From the NCBI RefSeq assembly GCF_000091665.1, contig NC_001732.1:6486-38485 (forward strand): DNA of 32,000 nt, in the 5' to 3' direction. The DNA comes from Methanocaldococcus jannaschii DSM 2661 (GTDB lineage Archaea; AGJL01; Methanococci; Methanococcales; Methanocaldococcaceae). The position numbers were made by a program, and so were the translations under genes. Positions 1,622 through 30,199 of the stretch are shown here, piece after piece. The notes beneath the pieces are model-generated. The model was not told where the DNA came from, made no database searches, and saw only the letters and a list, made by a program, of their open reading frames with translations. The stretch's first letter is position 1, and each line of letters begins with the position of its first letter.

Positions 1622-1672
1622 AGAAACATAAAAACCAATTCTATGCATATCCATTTATTTAGGTGTCAATGT

Positions 1673-2677
1673 ATGATTGAAACCATCCACATCAAAAATT
1701 TTAGAGGTATTAGAGAGCTTAAATTGGAAAATTTGGGACAGATAAATATAATTGCTGGGAAGAATAATGCTTCAAAATCAAGTATCTTAGAAGCTTTGGC
1801 ATTGTTTTTAAGTGCAAAGGAGGGGTTTTCATTATTTATAAAAATTTTAAGGGAGATATTACTTTGGAGAGGATGGTATGGTGAAAAAAGTATTTATGAT
1901 TTGTTCTATAAAAATTCTAAAGAACTTGAAGTAAGTGTTAAGTTCTTAAATCAAGATTTTGCAAATTTAACCCTAAAAAATTCTAATCAAAGTTTTGCAA
2001 ATAAAAATATTGCAGTAGAACTTAAATCTGATAAAAATTCTTGGAGTGGACGTTTTGATTCACATTTAATACATCCAGATTATATATCATCAATATTAAC
2101 CTCTGCAGAGGCTACACAAAGTAATTTTGAATTTATAACATCCTTAACATTAATAAAGTTTGGATATATTGAGAGCATATACTCTCAAGCCTATGAGACT
2201 CAAGTTTTACAGGATGCTATAAGATTGCTTAGAGAAGCATACCCAGAAGTTAAAAGTCTAAGCCCTCTCCAAAAGTATAACAAGTGGATAATTCATGTTT
2301 AAACTGAATATGGAGTTTATCCATACTATGTAATGGGAGAAGGGTTTAAAAGTGCTTTAATAATTGCATTATTAACCTCTATACTAAAAAATGGTTATCT
2401 TTTGATAGATTCAGCTGAAGCCTTTCATCACCCCTCCTCACTTGAAATTACTTCACAAATGCTTACAAAATCTGTAAAGAATAATAACGTTCAAGTATTT
2501 TTAACCACTCACAGCCTTGAATTGATAGACTTCCTCCTTGAACATGCCAGTAAAGAAGGTATAGAGGGCAGATTAATCTACATGCGTAGAGATGGGGAAA
2601 ATTTAATTAGCAGTATGGAATCCTTTGAAAATGTTAGGGAAATGAGAGAAACTCTCGGAATTGATTTAAGGGGGTAA
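1673..2677 (+). pseudogene. ABC/OLD-type (RecF/SMC-like) ATPase interrupted by an in-frame TAA at 2300-2302
   Basis: ORFs 1643..2302 and 2333..2677 share one frame and are separated only by TAA. The likely start is ATG 1673 (AGGTG upstream). N-terminal half: IKNFRGIRELKLENLGQINIIAGKNNASKSSILEAL. C-terminal half: GEGFKSALIIALL, LLIDSAEAFHHP, VFLTTHSLE. Confidence 0.7.
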
Positions 2678-3405: not shown

Positions 3406-3674
3406 CTCTTTTAAACATTTTGATAAAGATTTATGACATCTTTTACATCCTTTACTTCGACAACATCCTCCTCAATCTTAAAAATCTGCACAATTACCTC
3501 AATGTTCAATATTTGGACTTTTATTTTTTGAGATTCCTAAAAAAACTCTAAGGATTGTGCTTATTTTAAAAACACTAACAGGGTGAAAATAAAAAGTTGC
3601 AACTAAAAATAAGGAATGTTTTATTAGAATATTTAAAATTAAATAAACACGTTTTGAGAGTTTGTAATCTAACA

Positions 3675-3700
3675 GTGAATTGACTTCAAAGTCAATTCAC
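3675..3700. repeat. Palindrome family copy P1 (GTGAATTGACTT-CA-AAGTCAATTCAC)
   Basis: Perfect 12+12 nt inverted arms around a CA centre, read directly. Confidence 0.95.
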
Positions 3701-3767
3701 AAAAAAGACTCTCCATTTAGAATTACATTATAAAAGTCTCTAAAAATAGTGATATGATAAAATAAAC

Positions 3768-3887
3768 TTATTTAACTTTTACTGTTTTCTTTTGCATGTT
3801 TTTGCTAAGTCGGCAGTTTCTTTATCTATTTCCAAAGCTAAATTCTCTAATATCCTCAAGCAAAGTATTCTGCTGCAGCCCTACTAG
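3768..3887 (-). pseudogene. Internally deleted relic of an archaeal histone gene
   Basis: Aligns by eye to the intact histone gene at 29732-29935 (ttattt...aacttttactgtttt...gtattctgctgcagccctacta). About 24 nt near the 3' end and the whole 5' third are missing. The upstream block ttaaaacctacaaaaatattac is retained at 3896-3932. Confidence 0.6.
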
Positions 3888-4201
3888 CTTATTCATTAAA
3901 ACCTACAAAAATATTACCATTTTTGCATATATGCTGGATAAAAGTTGCTCTATCACTTAAAAGTTGCAGTTTTTTAATTGAAAGTTTTAAAGTTCTGATA
4001 ATAGAAATTCAAACATTAAAAATAGTATGTTGGATAAAACCATATAAAAACTATTTTTCCATTGAAATCACAATTTTTTCATGATACACAAAAGTTTAAA
4101 TACTTTTGTTTTGATAAAATTTTGAAAAAAATATTTATACTCGAAATTTTAAAGAAATAAGTATGTATAATCTCAGTTAAAAATTACTGAGGGTGATAAA
4201 T

Positions 4202-6215: not shown

Positions 6216-7454
6216 CTATTTGAGTACTTTTAATATTGTCTTTTGTTCTTCGTTAGTAATGTTTTCTAAAATCTTTTTTATCAATTCTTTTTCTTCATTT
6301 TCAACTTCAAAATACATATTACTAAGAATATATACAAAATCTTCTAAGAGTTTTGAATTTTTTTGGCTAATTTTGTATATAGATTTTAGAATAATATCTC
6401 TATGTATATGAATGTTTAGTAAATCGTGTAAAAAAGAAATATCATTGTAAGCTAACACGTAATTGCATATTACATTTATAAGTTGGTTGTACATTGTTTT
6501 TGAAATTCTCCCACTGTTTAAAAGATTTATTACTATATTTTTAATAGTCCATGATGGATGATCTATAAAAAAACTTAAAGCTTTGGCTTTGATACTAAAA
6601 CTATCATCATATATCATTTTTGCAATTTTTAGCTGTATAAGTTCTTTAGATTCTTTGTCAATATCCTGCAAACTAAGATATTTTCTAGCAAGTTCAATAT
6701 ATACAATTTTTGCTTCAAAATTATAGCCTAAGTCAATATTATTACTTTTTTGAAGAATGTCTAAATTATACTCTTCTCGTAAAGTTTTTGTAGAAATATT
6801 GTTTTTTAGGCAAATATTACAGATTGTGTTAAGAATTTCTAGTGATAATACTTTAAAACGTTCACGTGTTGCAAAAGTGTTACAAAACTTTTTGTATTCC
6901 TCTAAACGATAATATTCATTAATTAATAACTCTAGGTGCTCTTTTTCTGCAAAGCTTGTAAATACTCTCAATATTAGAATCCTATATGTTAAATCTTTTA
7001 AAACATCAACTTCAAAAATCTCTTCATTATCAATTTTTAGATATTGTGATGTAATTATTTTAATTATTTTCTTTATGGAATATTTTCTTAGTTCTACATC
7101 CTTTTCTATAATTCTCCTAAGCTCTAGCATTGCTTGAACTTTAAGACCTCTATGGGCATATTTTAAAAACTTGAATAATGCATCTACTTTCTTTTCTGAG
7201 TTTTCTTTTAGTAATATAAGTCCTAAAATAACTCGTTGTATTTCCACACCATACTTATGCACATAATGACTGTTAGGATGAGTTTTAGATCTAATTATTG
7301 TCCTATGTGGTTTTATAAATTCTATAAAATCATCATATATTTTATCTGGAATAAAGATACTCTCCTTCAATAAAACTCTAAAAATTTGACGAGAATCAAT
7401 GCCAAGTTTAGATTTTTTGAGCTGGGCTATAACCCCATCATAATCTAACTTCAC
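6216..7454 (-). CDS. Hypothetical protein, 412 aa, predicted helical, no motif recognised
   Basis: Long ORF with a GTG start preceded by GGTGGG. Convergent with the MCM-like gene. Confidence 0.6.
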   Translation of the reverse strand: MKLDYDGVIAQLKKSKLGIDSRQIFRVLLKESIFIPDKIYDDFIEFIKPHRTIIRSKTHPNSHYVHKYGVEIQRVILGLILLKENSEKKVDALFKFLKYAHRGLKVQAMLELRRIIEKDVELRKYSIKKIIKIITSQYLKIDNEEIFEVDVLKDLTYRILILRVFTSFAEKEHLELLINEYYRLEEYKKFCNTFATRERFKVLSLEILNTICNICLKNNISTKTLREEYNLDILQKSNNIDLGYNFEAKIVYIELARKYLSLQDIDKESKELIQLKIAKMIYDDSFSIKAKALSFFIDHPSWTIKNIVINLLNSGRISKTMYNQLINVICNYVLAYNDISFLHDLLNIHIHRDIILKSIYKISQKNSKLLEDFVYILSNMYFEVENEEKELIKKILENITNEEQKTILKVLK

Positions 7455-7840
7455 AATCCCACCATAAGTAGTTCCAACTTATAGTGATTTATTAGTTTAT
7501 TTTACGAAGAATATCGAACTTAATATAAATGAACGAAACTCTCCCCTCCCATAAAGAACGTTTAAAACCTTTCATTTATCATCAACAATCGTTATTTAAA
7601 TCTACTATTATTTAGAAAATCAGTTAGAGGATACTTTTAATATTCCATTCAAACATTGAAAATAATCATTTCAAACAATTCTCCCATTTATGGCTGCTAT
7701 TACAAGCCCATATTTTAATATTCTGCTAACAATATTATTGATAAAGTTAAACTGTATCTCAAAAAACTAATGGTAAAATTTGAAAATAAAGATACAAACT
7801 TTTAAATAATTTTGTTTTATAATTTTTAATTGGTGGTATT

Positions 7841-8945
7841 ATGAAATTTTTCAACAGGGAGAAAGAGATTAATGAGATACTTCGAATTTTAAATAGAGAG
7901 CCAGACGATATTTATTTTATATATGGACCCTTAAACAGTGGAAAAACTACTTTAATAAATCACATAATAAACAATGAATTAAAAAAATCCAATAAAAAAT
8001 ATGCTGTCTTTTATGTTAATTTCAGAGAGTATGATATTTACATCAATGGATAATTTTGTTGAGGCATTGTTTGAAATAGACGAAAATTCGAAAGAAAAGA
8101 AGATAAAATCATACATAGAGAGTTTTACAAAGGGAGTTAATGATATTATAAACTTATACTATGGGATAAAGATTCCAGAGCCAATATTGGATAAGTTTTT
8201 TGGAGAAAAAGAAAAGGGGGGATTGGTTTTTAAGTTTATTAGAGATTTATTTATGAGTTTGAATAAGAAGGGAGTTCAGCCAGTATTCATTTTAGATGAA
8301 TTGCAGATGATTAAAGATATTGTTATGAATGGAGGAAAGCCATTATTAAAAAGCTTATTCCAATTTTTGGTTTCTTTAACAAAGGAGAGGCACATAGCAC
8401 ATGTTTTTTGCCTAAGTTCAGATAGTTTGTTTATTGAGTATGTTTATAATGCTGGAGAGTTAGAAGGAAGGGCGAAATATCTATTGGTTGATGATTTTGA
8501 TAAAGAAACTTCCTTAAAATTTATGGACTTTTTAGCAGTAGAAGGAAATATTAACTTAACTAATGAAGATAAAGAGTTAATTTATTCTTATGTTGGGGGA
8601 AAGGCAAAGGACATAAAGTATGTTATTGAAGAAAGTAAGTTTAAAGACTTAAGAGAGGTTTTGGACTTTATGTTAAAAGATGAGGTTTCCAAATTGAGAA
8701 AATTATTGGTTAAGATAAAAACTAAAAAGATTGCAGAAGTTGAGTATGAAAATGTTGTTAAAGCATTAAAATTATTTAAAGACAATTATGAAATCAACGA
8801 ATACCTTATGGACGAGAATACAAAAGAATTCTTAATTAAAAGGAATATCTTATTCTTAAACCCCGTAGAGGAGATTTTAAAGCCACAAAGTTATTTAGTT
8901 TGGAACGCAATAAAAAGAGTATTACAAAATATAAACGATTTTTAA
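7841..8945 (+). pseudogene. 'Archaeal ATPase' family P-loop NTPase, frameshifted near 8030-8045
   Basis: ORF 7841..8053 ([14 protein letters not shown]...GPLNSGKTTL...FYVNFRE) and ORF 8001..8945 (...[17 protein letters not shown]...FILDELQ...) together align end to end with the intact neighbour 8962..10059. The frame changes after FYVNFR at the (ag)3 run. Confidence 0.75.
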
Positions 8946-10116: not shown

Positions 10117-10329
10117 ATGAGCATTCTCATTTCTAATAAACAATTCAATCATGGGTTAAAGGATGAATTTGCTACTAAAAAGGATTTAGAATTGTTAGAA
10201 GAGAGGATTTTGAGATATGTTGATAATAAGTTCAATCAATTGGATAAAAAAATTGATAGGACTTTTTATTTACTTGTCTTCTTTATTATACTGTGGGTAT
10301 CTCGGGAGGCATTTTTTTATTTGATATAA
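10117..10329 (+). CDS. Small coiled-coil protein with C-terminal hydrophobic segment
   Basis: 70-aa ORF with KKDLELLEERILRYVDNKFNQLDKKIDR followed by FYLLVFFIILWV. It starts at the breakpoint of the vapC relic. Confidence 0.45.
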   Translation: MSILISNKQFNHGLKDEFATKKDLELLEERILRYVDNKFNQLDKKIDRTFYLLVFFIILWVSREAFFYLI

Positions 10330-10330
10330 T

Positions 10331-10415
10331 CCGAACGCCTCCCTCATCGACACCCGCTCCCCTTTACGGGGACAGACCCCCTACTGCCCCGATAGGGACA
10401 GCTAGGAAGTAGCCT
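10331..10415. ncRNA. GC-rich island with two tandem CCCC...GGGGACAG hairpins; candidate structured RNA or 3' element
   Basis: ccgaacgcctccctcatcgacacccgctcccctttacggggacagaccccctactgccccgatagggacagctaggaagtagcc stands out against AT-rich flanks. The hairpins are tcccc-tttac-gggga and ctgcccc-gata-gggacag. Confidence 0.25.
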
Positions 10416-10445
10416 TAAACTTTAATAATACTTATTATTGATAAA

Positions 10446-10754
10446 GTATTATACGTTCATACATATAAAAAATGTGAGAAAAATGAGAAAATAAAATATG
10501 TAATTTAAATTGTTAAGATTTAATAGTTTAAACGTGTGAAAAATGCTTGTTTTTAGAACATTGTATAATGTATTATGTAAATTATCTTTGGATATAATTA
10601 AAAATGTAAGAAAACCATTGAGATTTGGTGTAAAAGAGGGATAGATTGATTATATTGAAAAAAGTTTATGTTGTAAAGTGTATATTCATAATTGGTTTTT
10701 ACTAATGGACAAAATTATACAGTTTAAAATTTAAGTTTATAAATTAGTATTATT
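10446..10754 (+). repeat. Left copy of ~309-bp direct repeat
   Basis: The ends align nearly perfectly with 12770-13078 (gttcatacatataaaaaa..gagaaaaatgagaaaataaaa..atgtaatttaaatt ... aaaaccattgagattt..gtgtaaaag...agattgattatatt..aaaaagtttatgtt..taaagtgta...acaaaattatacagtttaaaatttaagtttataaattagtattatt). The centre is diverged. Confidence 0.85.
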
Positions 10755-11235: not shown

Positions 11236-11837
11236 AAGTGTGAAGTTATTAAAGATTTTTCTATTTGTTTTGTTTTGTAGTTAGAGTAGTTCTAAGTTGT
11301 GGTTGTATTGGAGATGAATGCACTCCACACCCATAGGCACTATAAGCGCGTTGAAAAGATGAATACAGTTTGTTCATGGAATGTGATAAAATTCATTAAA
11401 AATGAGTTTAAAACAATTCTTCACAATTCTTTAGGAGGATACTATGAGGTTGGTAAACTCTTTATTATAGCAGTGGCAACAAAACAGAAACAACCCTAAC
11501 TCTTTTATTAAGAATACCAACACCACCAAAACATCACCCAAAGCACCCTTATGAATAAAATGAACATCACACGAGAATCCACTCCCCTAACACTCTTTTT
11601 ACCCAACACCTTAACAACATTCATGAAACACCACACACAAACAAATCCTAAAATCAAAACATGCCACTGTATAAAACTATTGATAATAATTAATAATATA
11701 AAAATTATCAAACTTAATACTACCAAAACAAATAAAATAAATTCCCACCACAAAACAAAACAAACAAATATTATAATCACCAAACAATATAAAAACAATA
11801 ATATTATGTAAATTCCCATTAGGGAAAAGGTGAAAAC

Positions 11838-12282
11838 ATGCTCAAAAAACTATTTGGAAAAGACGATGAAAAAACAGACGAACGAATTAAAAAATTAGAA
11901 AACAGAATAGAAAAAATAGAATTAGAGTTAAAAACCATAAAAAACACAAGTTCATACCCACAAATTATAAGAATAGAAAAAGAACTCCAACAAATAATAA
12001 AAACAGACATTGACAAACTAACAACCCTATACATCAAACTCCAACCCAAACCCAACACCATAGAACAAACAAAAAATCATACAAATACTAAAACACGAAC
12101 AACCCCTACAATCATCAAAAATAGTAGAAAAACTAAAACCAAACATAAAATCAAAAGGAACAATCTACCAAGCCCTAAAACAACTACAAAAAGAGAAAAA
12201 AATAACAAAAGCCACAGTCAAAGAAAATGGTAAAAGAAAAGTATACTACAAACTCACAGATGAAAACACTGATATAACATAG
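11838..12282 (+). pseudogene. Coiled-coil plus winged-helix DNA-binding protein split by a +1 frame change near 12064-12080
   Basis: A strong RBS (AAGGTGA) precedes ATG 11838. The N-terminal part is coiled coil (ERIKKLENRIEKIELELKTIK...). After about codon 75 the tracked frame becomes low-complexity, whereas the +1 frame is open 12064-12282 and reads KIIQILKHEQPLQSSKIVEKLKPNIKSKGTIYQALKQLQKEKKITKATVKENGKRKVYYKLTDEN*. Confidence 0.6.
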
Positions 12283-12324
12283 AAAACATCCCTAATCCTA
12301 ATTGTTAAAAACATTAATTATCAA

Positions 12325-12364
12325 GGGAGGTTGCCACACTTTTTAAAAAGTGTGGCAACCTCCC
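12325..12364. repeat. Perfect 40-nt palindrome GGGAGGTTGCCACACTTTTT|AAAAAGTGTGGCAACCTCCC
   Basis: Checked base by base: 20+20 nt with no mismatch. It lies 42 nt after the wHTH frame stop. Confidence 0.95.
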
Positions 12365-12651
12365 AAATATTCCTATAAGAAACAAAATTTACCATAAAGT
12401 AATAAAAACCCCATAAACTTATTTTCCTATAGGATAAATGCCATTGACTATTAGAAAAACAACACTCTTTTATGCCACTGCTAACACACAATAAATTTCC
12501 ACATTCTATACACAATAAAGTGTTTTTAACCGTAATTTTCAACATTGGACTAACCACTCTAACAGAAATGTGAAATACCCCACACACTTCCAAGACATGA
12601 AACGCCCCTTATTTTTCAATTTTTCAATTGTATTTACTAACATTCACAAAA

Positions 12652-12687
12652 GAGGAACAGCCAATTTTTAAAAATTGGCTGTTCCTC
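12652..12687. repeat. Perfect 36-nt palindrome GAGGAACAGCCAATTTTT|AAAAATTGGCTGTTCCTC
   Basis: Checked base by base: 18+18 nt with no mismatch. It shares the TTTTTAAAAA centre with the 12325 palindrome. Confidence 0.95.
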
Positions 12688-13429: not shown

Positions 13430-13633
13430 TTATTTCTTCAAAGCTAGTTTTACGTCTTCGACTTTTACTGTTTTTCTCTTTGCCATGTTTTGCCAAGTCA
13501 ACAGCTTCTTTAGCTATTTCCAAAGCTAAATCTTCTATAGCCTCAGCAAAGTATTCCGCTGCAGCCCTACTAACTCTCTCAGCCCCATCCTTTTTTAATA
13601 TCCTTACAAACGGTGCAACTGAAGCTCAGCCAT
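13430..13633 (-). pseudogene. Archaeal histone gene with two compensating frameshifts (-1 near codon 5, +1 near codon 50)
   Basis: It has the same 204-nt length as the intact histone gene (29732-29935) and keeps RBS, ATG and TAA. My alignment shows actgaagctc versus actggaagctc (1 nt lost) and 67 versus 66 nt between ctttgc and gtattc (1 nt gained). The central 45 codons ([43 protein letters not shown]) are out of frame with both ends. Confidence 0.8.
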
Positions 13634-13699
13634 AACACCACCCAAAAAAACTTATACTCAAAAATTATCAATTAAAACCTACAAAAATATTACTATTTT

Positions 13700-21429: not shown

Positions 21430-21583
21430 TCCCTTAACATTCCTTATAAAGAAATACTCTATAAAAGTTTATTATTACATTATTGCATTAAACAGTTAAA
21501 CATATAACCAATAATTTAAATATGAAATAATGTAATGCCATAATACTGTAATAAAATAATAGAATATCTAATGGTGAGAGTTT

Positions 21584-22363
21584 ATGGTTGTAATTTCAAT
21601 TGCAAATCAAAAAGGGGGTGTTGGAAAAACAACAATAGCATTAAACCTATCATTTACACTTGCAGAAAAGGGGTATGATACTTTAGTAATCGATTTAGAC
21701 CCACAATTCAACTTATCCTTTGGAATTTTGGGAATGAAATTATTAGATTATGCTGATAAAAATATTGGAATACTATTATCAAAAAATTCTGTTAAGAAGA
21801 AAGAAATTGAAGAGTCTATTATAAAAATTAATGATAAGTTAGATTTAATCCCCTCCCACTTGCAGCTTTCTGCTGTAGAAAAAATGTTAGTTAATGCTTA
21901 TGCAAGGGAAATGAAGTTGAAAAATATCATTAACCAAATCAAAGAAAATTATGACTACATAATAATTGATAATGCCCCATCATTAGGACTATTTTTAATA
22001 AATTCATTAGTGGCATCTGATTATATTATCATCCCATGTGAGCCAAGTTATTTTAGTATTGCAGGAGTTCAACTAATGTTAGATACTGTTGAGGAAATAA
22101 AAGAATCAAACTTGAATCCAAAACTTAAAGTTTTAGGGTTTATTTTCAACAAGTACTCTAAACAATCAAAAATTCCACAAAAGAGGTTAGAACAGTTAAA
22201 ACAACTCTATCCTAACATTCCAGTAATTGGAGTAATTCCAAGAACTATTACTGTTGAAAAGGCAGAACGTGAGGGAAAACCTGTGTTTAAATTTGATGCT
22301 AATAATCCTGCAAGTGTTGCATTCTCAGAACTTGCTGAGTGGGTGATAGAAAATGTCAAATGA
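21584..22363 (+). CDS. parA: ParA/Soj/MinD-family partition ATPase
   Basis: GGTGAG RBS. Deviant Walker A NQKGGVGKTT (21605-21634), DLDPQ, and IIIDNAP Walker B. Confidence 0.92.
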   Translation: MVVISIANQKGGVGKTTIALNLSFTLAEKGYDTLVIDLDPQFNLSFGILGMKLLDYADKNIGILLSKNSVKKKEIEESIIKINDKLDLIPSHLQLSAVEKMLVNAYAREMKLKNIINQIKENYDYIIIDNAPSLGLFLINSLVASDYIIIPCEPSYFSIAGVQLMLDTVEEIKESNLNPKLKVLGFIFNKYSKQSKIPQKRLEQLKQLYPNIPVIGVIPRTITVEKAEREGKPVFKFDANNPASVAFSELAEWVIENVK

Positions 22364-29731: not shown

Positions 29732-29935
29732 TTATTTCTTTAAAGCTAATTTTATATCTTCAACTTTTACTGTTTTTCTCTTTGCGTGCTTAGCTAAATC
29801 AACTGCTTCCTTAGCAATTTCTAATGCAATTTCTTCAAATGCCTCTGCTAAGTATTCTGCTGCAGCCCTACTAACTCTTTCAGCTCCAACTTTTTTCAAG
29901 ATTCTCTCAAATGGTGCAACTGGAAGCTCAGTCAC
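29732..29935 (-). CDS. Archaeal histone (HMf family)
   Basis: [67 protein letters not shown] is a 67-aa single histone fold. GTG start after GAGGTAG. Confidence 0.92.
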
Positions 29936-30199
29936 AACACTACCTCTTTGTATATGTAGAGTGTAGAAGCTCTAATAACCTACAAAGTGGGAGTTCAAAT
30001 TTGCTAAACTTTAAGCTCCCTTAATGGAAACTCGAAACTAAAATAAGTAAAACCATAATACAATAATACAATCATTCAATAATATCATAAAATCATAATT
30101 TAGTAATGCAATAATCCAATAACTCCACAATAACATAATAAAATAACTTTGAGTTTCCACTAAAAGAAATTCAAAGGTGGGGTTAATAAATTTCTTATA

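Follow-up and report, generated by a model that had tools for sequence, protein, structure and literature searches.

Canonical PadR-type repressors possess an N-terminal wHTH (winged-helix) domain followed by a C-terminal dimerisation helix. In Sso10a, a winged helix is joined to an antiparallel coiled coil, and AspA of pNOB8 is a small wHTH protein of an archaeal plasmid. Genes split by a frameshift may still be expressed in archaea: the fucA1 gene of S. solfataricus (Saccharolobus) undergoes programmed -1 frameshifting at an A-AAA-AAT heptamer (PMC1616953, PMC8211752). The fucA1 frameshift is strain-specific, with about 10% read-through in vitro, and relatives exhibit full-length genes (PMC8211752).

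The window studied here (the whole stretch of DNA that was analysed, 32,000 nucleotides) belongs to a 58,407-bp secondary contig of 28.2% GC; the other contigs of the genome measure 1,664,970 and 16,550 bp. The window is AT-rich and encodes MCM, several archaeal ATPase_2 genes, ParA and a histone. An earlier reading of one of its ORFs, made without any database search (hereafter the sequence-only reading), had proposed a single ancestral gene, made of a coiled-coil part and a wHTH domain and broken by a frameshift. The intact orthologue and the family of the same layout described below bear this out, and the locus is probably a young pseudogene, put out of frame, from an uncharacterised family of plasmid regulators in Methanococcales.

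The called ORF and the domain in its +1 frame

The called ORF, 11838..12233 on the forward strand, corresponds to 131 aa, and its translation loses its sense past about codon 79. A ribosome-binding site (RBS) is found 5 nt 5' of the ATG. Together with a TATA-like element it forms a block that is also kept in the intact allele (DNA alignment A2) and that may act as a promoter. The +1 frame stays open over positions 12064-12282 (72 codons and a TAG), its upstream limit being the TAG at 12061-12063, and holds no ATG, GTG or TTG over this length. An A6 run lies at 12071-12076. The coordinates of both frames, the RBS, the A6 run and the missing start had all been put forward in the sequence-only reading, and the sequence and its translation confirm them. 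The coding strand consists of 53% A and 7% G at this gene, so that open frames, however long, are weak evidence alone, and the case rests on homology. The out-of-frame tail (12075..12233) has no homologue; P0004, the intact orthologue, uses the other frame across the same DNA.

A skew of the same kind (53-58% A, 7% G) is common to the three alleles compared in this study (window 11500-12300 on the forward strand, L006:237-843 and L020:1-538). The depletion of G is thus a trait of the sequence of the gene family, not of replicon decay.

A 53-aa public protein cluster (P0007) corresponds to the +1 frame at 12115-12282 of the forward strand, with its start called at an ATA codon. We rejected a separate start for the wHTH domain, given the lack of the three start codons named above and the fact that a product beginning at this ATA would miss helix 1. 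P0007 is a spurious gene call.

Table 1. Features of the locus and its surroundings, and distant members of the family (window positions unless a contig is named)
Feature	Position	Strand	Remarks
Putative promoter and RBS	11787..11833	+	TATA-like ATATAAAA at 11787-11794, then GGTGA at 11829-11833
N-terminal half, frame 0, codons 1-79	11838..12074	+	Pairs with residues 1-78 of P0004; helical hairpin or coiled-coil part of the ancestral gene
Lesion site GAACAAACAAAAAATC	12063..12078	+	Both other alleles 5 bases longer; gap at columns 295-299 of alignment A4, in the window allele only
Out-of-frame tail of the 131-aa ORF	12075..12233	+	52 K/T/R-rich low-complexity codons and stop (translation)
wHTH domain, +1 frame	12076..12282	+	68 codons and TAG, without its own start; matches Pfam PadR and PDB PadR chains
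Perfect 40-nt palindrome	12325..12364		42 nt past the stop of the wHTH frame; unique in the genome
Perfect 36-nt palindrome	12652..12687		T5/A5 centre; 35/36 conserved about 55 nt past the stop of the intact allele
9-mer ATGCCACTG	10897, 10947 (-), 10979, 11661, 12472, 27265		Copies in the window
Histone-fold gene copy	13431..13640	-	Two frameshifts, -1 at codon 5 and +1 near codon 50; alignment A5 with two intact copies and three-frame translation
Distant family member L041	G022:C2 (8285 bp), 7217-7975		Profile E-value range 1e-8 to 1e-11
Distant family member L042	G014:C2 (10704 bp), 10162-10671	-	Profile E-value range 1e-8 to 1e-11
Distant family member L043	G023:C2 (7732 bp), 3626-3994	-	Profile E-value range 1e-8 to 1e-11

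The +1 peptide exhibits a clear match to the Pfam PadR model (PF03551; 37.4 bits, E-value = 2.6e-09) above the gathering cut-off of 27, with weaker matches to other wHTH models. By sequence it also matches solved PadR chains (5h20, E-value = 4e-4), and its identity with P0004, over the C-terminal half of that protein, is 78-80%. The presence of a wHTH domain in the +1 frame, as claimed in the sequence-only reading, is thereby upheld. The read-through product P0003, a conceptual sequence in which AATC is taken as one step, scores 35.2 bits against PF03551 (cut-off 27). The search for intact orthologues proposed in the same reading returned P0004, a full-length protein of 146 aa encoded by six vent-type metagenome contigs and exhibiting 78% identity to P0003 over 99% coverage. 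P0004 reads TIEQTKQKIIQILK / ...PNTIEQTKQKIIQILK... uninterrupted over the junction, so that the orthologue conserves the +1 frame rather than that of the called ORF. P0004 itself scores 22.2 bits against PadR, under the cut-off of 27, yet 31.6 bits against HTH_11, over the cut-off of 25, so that the placement in one subfamily of the wHTH clan is less than firm. Another protein, P0008, scores 20.6 bits against PadR (cut-off 27).

The AlphaFold model of P0004 (mean pLDDT 80.6) starts with two long helices, at residues 3-37 and 40-67, followed by a short linker. These helices agree with the coiled-coil N-terminus predicted by the sequence-only reading. The C-terminus then forms a canonical wHTH, with helices at 74-87, 93-100 and 105-117 and a wing at 121-138 (strands 121-128 and 131-138), that is, the three-helix bundle and beta-hairpin wing of the winged-helix superfamily. 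A Foldseek search with this model gave a probability of 1.00 to the wHTH domains of YodB, PadR, MarR and LmrR, superposed at 1.3-2 A over 63-72 columns. No solved chain spanning the whole hairpin-wHTH architecture was found by Foldseek, and none of the curated Pfam and NCBIfam models extends over the full length.

An exhaustive HMMER search with P0004 identified five more full-length relatives of 128-154 aa, with 27-43% identity, all aligned over both halves. The consensus residues of the family (TIY.ALK.L.KEKKITK and KRKVYYKL) are all retained in the window. With a profile of the family, related ORFs were further found in other Methanococcales genomes, on small secondary contigs of 7.7, 8.3 and 10.7 kb that are probably plasmids (Table 1). 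These sequences define a small uncharacterised family, with an N-terminal helical hairpin and a C-terminal PadR-like wHTH, distributed among Methanococcales accessory replicons and vent metagenomes. A single-protein search of the genomes of 40 relatives yielded one weak match (G011, E-value = 0.004). The metagenome scan for further alleles returned only the known intact contig, pattern scans of genome contigs and of viral contigs gave no further alleles or homologues, and DNA and protein searches of PLSDB gave no match. Nothing specific to this gene was found in the literature, nor any proteomic evidence for its product.

Two observations on individual members of the family may be added. The sequence L042 has a GC content of 46%, far over the 27-31% of the other replicons examined. 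P0006, the relative with 43% identity, has a convergent neighbour (L021:777-1106, reverse strand) coding for a 109-aa PadR/HxlR/MarR-like protein, so that a second small wHTH gene accompanies P0006.

A derived 5-nt loss and its possible meanings

At the junction of the two frames, the window allele is 5 nt shorter than the intact allele, with GAACAAACAAAAAATC in place of GAACAAACAAAACAAAAAATC. The lost nucleotides correspond to one CAAAA unit of a short direct repeat, of which the intact allele has two CAAAA-like units and the window one, and the A6 run is the product of this deletion. The sequence-only reading had assumed the insertion of a single nucleotide in a homopolymer; this part of it does not hold, although the resulting frame is the same. 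The remaining indels between the two alleles, of 3 nt and 6 nt, are both in frame. A third allele, L020, known from one metagenome contig of 538 nt from a vent, keeps the 5 nt deleted in the window. It exhibits 5 extra nucleotides (CAACT-like) located 25 nt upstream, within a CCCAA-rich linker; as a result, the coiled-coil ORF of L020 is only 75 codons long, and the wHTH is found in the -1 frame. A protein search with the 75-aa product retrieved itself alone. Since each indel is found in a single allele of the three-way alignment, the two are independent derived events, and the independent +5-nt frameshift of the third allele suggests that the gene is dispensable.

This disruption is truly present in the DNA. 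The exact 131-aa product occurs on 16 contigs of other assemblies (ENA, JGI, Logan), with identical DNA across the region, and three RNA-seq runs of this organism gave contigs that span positions 11807-12354 with 0 mismatches and 0 gaps. An error of sequencing or assembly in the reference, with an intact true gene behind it, would be a natural suspicion, as frameshifts in A-rich low-complexity DNA are a classic class of error and a second frameshifted gene lies 1.2 kb off. The recurrence of the same sequence in independently assembled contigs and in the RNA-run contigs nevertheless excludes the mis-called A-run that the sequence-only reading had considered, and a difference of 5 nt from the intact allele is not a homopolymer miscount. 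We hold an error to be extremely improbable. As the samples of the 16 contigs may all hold one type strain (e.g. mock-community DNA), this evidence bears on error and not on natural fixation of the lesion.

The gene is still transcribed. The RNA-run contigs begin at 11754, 11807 and 11831, past a drop in coverage at 11743-11806, and break at 12354-12359, at the perfect 40-nt palindrome. Perfect palindromes break k-mer assemblies too, so that these breaks are perhaps artefacts, not proof of a transcript 3' end.

The pattern of the alleles might also be read as a contingency (phase-variable) switch, in which CCCAA/CAAAA units of the linker would reversibly gain or lose 5 nt and turn the regulator ON or OFF within populations. 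Two of the three known alleles are indeed independently frameshifted, by exactly +5 and -5 nt, at most 25 nt apart in the same low-complexity linker, and each change amounts to one repeat-like unit. However, the tracts comprise only two or three imperfect units and are not long tandem tracts. Known contingency loci with high switching rates have far longer repeat tracts. Moreover, all contigs with the window allele are identical at the site, without length variants (contigs would hide minority variants), the +5 allele is represented by the single metagenome contig, and the decay of neighbouring genes (see below) points to general erosion rather than to a dedicated switch. We thus consider such a switch very unlikely.

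Between the window and the intact allele, the pairwise dN/dS amounts to 3.4 in the N-terminal half and to 0.82 in the wHTH half, values obtained from tiny counts in sequences of extreme composition. On these very few substitutions, neither half exhibits a sign of purifying selection. The wHTH frame contains no further stop or indel, and almost no substitutions are specific to the window after its split from the third allele. With few or no wHTH substitutions specific to the window lineage, the lesion appears to be young, which would explain why the domain still looks perfect. An undamaged wHTH frame fits a very recent loss, and it fits equally a domain still in use.

The latter case would call for leaky or programmed recoding. 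Some ribosomes would slip +1 on A-AAA-A, with tRNA-Lys moving from 12072-74 to 12073-75, or RNA polymerase would drop one A of the A6 run, and a little functional hairpin-wHTH protein would be made, minus the KQ of helix 1. Several features would be compatible with this. The whole wHTH is restored solely by a +1 or -2 shift at the run, where the AAA at 12072-74 re-pairs perfectly as 12073-75 (a permissive feature only); the productive stretch, between the TAG at 12061-63 and the beginning of helix 1, is short but open; transcription and the RBS are kept, and the wHTH frame is undamaged. The S. solfataricus fucA1 gene, with a strain-specific frameshift at A-AAA-AAT that is read through, provides a precedent (PMC8211752). 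Against recoding, the shift is not conserved: P0004 and the five distant relatives are single ORFs, and in the third allele the break lies elsewhere and shifts the frame the opposite way. The A site has neither a stop nor a rare codon, the next frame-0 codon being AAT (37 per 1000), and the 100 nt that follow have next to no predicted structure (-1.7 kcal/mol, z = -0.47). A6 runs number 2066 in the long ORFs of the chromosome, and the run at 12071-12076 is therefore not special. The fucA1 heptamer serves -1 frameshifting, a dead end here, and the RNA consensus at the run is unedited at the level of assembled contigs, which hide rare slippage variants. Expression through +1 slippage, which the sequence-only reading had offered as an option, has thus found no supporting signal, and we regard recoding as unlikely. 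We also considered frameshifting in the -1 direction, as in fucA1, and rejected it: a -1 slip meets a stop after 5 codons.

Both processes might finally act together. The hairpin-wHTH regulator would then be switched or throttled at its linker, through reversible +5/-5 slipped-strand changes and through low-level +1 slippage on the newly formed A-AAA-AAT, the latter giving a trace of full-length repressor. We judge this combination decidedly unlikely. If true, it would be a +1 counterpart of fucA1 in a hyperthermophilic methanogen, and a leaky +1 shift or a ±5-nt switch would represent a rare example of archaeal recoding or phase variation in a well-studied model methanogen; nothing here favours it.

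Palindromes of the replicon and decay of the neighbouring genes

In the contigs carrying the intact allele, the gene lies beside a divergent parA homologue (L006:1-186, aligned with window 21480-21681), from which about 300 nt of intergenic sequence separate it, and is followed downstream by a 268-aa gene and then by an intact histone gene. In the window, parA is located at 21584-22363, 9 kb from the hairpin-wHTH gene, which indicates a rearrangement. The adjacency in the intact contigs hints at a link between the regulator and the partition locus, and on this ground P0004 is a reasonable candidate for a protein of plasmid regulation or maintenance.

No part of this genome contains a homologue of the 268-aa gene. 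The histone-fold gene copy next to the locus carries two frameshifts (Table 1) in comparison with the intact copies at about 29733-29946 of the window and on contig L006. With the histone frameshifted and the 268-aa gene lost, the syntenic block around the hairpin-wHTH gene is decayed. The first and last segments of the broken histone copy share a frame, and the copy is inverted with respect to the intact contigs.

Two consecutive ORFs in another part of the window (1643-2302 and 2333-2677, forward strand) together make up a split AAA_15/OLD-type ATPase, interrupted by a stop and a gap of 30 nt. The N-terminal part covers profile positions 1-110 and the C-terminal part positions 302-374. This is probably another disrupted gene of the same replicon.

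The DNA downstream of the gene contains two perfect palindromes (Table 1). The 40-nt one belongs to a stretch of about 355 nt (12285-12638) that is absent beside the intact allele and unique in the genome. The 36-nt one is 97% identical to that of the intact allele, against about 79% for its flanks. The sequence-only reading had proposed the protein as a candidate binder of these palindromes. Given their position about 40-55 nt after a stop and the T5/A5 centre, they would suit 3'-end or terminator elements no less well than operators.

The 58-kb contig has 6 copies of the 9-mer ATGCCACTG, four of which fall at 10.9-11.7 kb of the window, around the hairpin-wHTH gene; the 1.66-Mb chromosome has only 8. 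One copy (12472) is also held by the 355-nt stretch mentioned above, and the motif is found downstream of the histone gene in the intact-allele contigs L007 and L008 as well. The direct repeats bounding a 2.6-kb segment are present in the window.

A probable pseudogene and its known counterparts

The observations are best accounted for by a young frameshift pseudogene. The ancestral gene encoded about 146 aa, starting with an antiparallel helical hairpin and ending with a PadR-like winged helix, the two joined by a short linker rich in P, K and N. The hairpin was probably the dimerisation module, and the dimer may have bound the replicon at a repeated or palindromic DNA site. The distribution of the family on plasmids and the adjacency to parA suggest a regulatory role or one in plasmid maintenance. 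The loss of one CAAAA unit at the first wHTH helix, presumably by strand slippage, moved the domain to the +1 frame. The transcript would now specify the hairpin followed by a 52-residue basic nonsense tail, without the wHTH, and the function would thus have been lost. The retention of the putative promoter, the RBS and transcription counts against the pseudogene, as does the A-AAA-AAT sequence that allows +1 re-pairing of the P-site tRNA-Lys. For annotation, half of the 131-aa call is nonsense, and the locus is better recorded as a frameshifted hairpin-wHTH regulator gene.

The wHTH of this family resembles that of PadR-type repressors (PF03551; 5h20, 3l7w, LmrR 3f8b, YodB 5hs7) by its three helices, its beta-hairpin wing and a basic K-R-K motif. 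In contrast, the canonical PadR order is reversed: in the P0004 model the hairpin (residues 3-67) comes first and the wHTH (74-138) last, which sets the family apart from the PadR architecture. Sso10a and AspA are similarly small archaeal DNA-binding proteins, combining a wHTH with a helical dimerisation module, and the setting of the window family is plasmid-borne, as is that of AspA. The domain order of Sso10a differs from that of the window family. Neither protein is among the top 50 PDB matches, by sequence or by Foldseek.

The likeness to fucA1 lies in an archaeal gene split at the same heptamer and in the same phase (ACA AAA AAT here), with uninterrupted relatives. The difference is that fucA1 uses a -1 shift and possesses flanking rare codons and a putative stem-loop, whereas the window gene needs a +1 or -2 shift and has neither. 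Compared with ordinary frameshift pseudogenes, the sole atypical point of the window gene is a second allele independently frameshifted in the same 25-nt linker. With the frameshift pseudogenes of decaying accessory replicons it shares a derived lesion, broken or lost neighbours and persisting transcription, as well as, on the very few substitutions counted, no sign of purifying selection.
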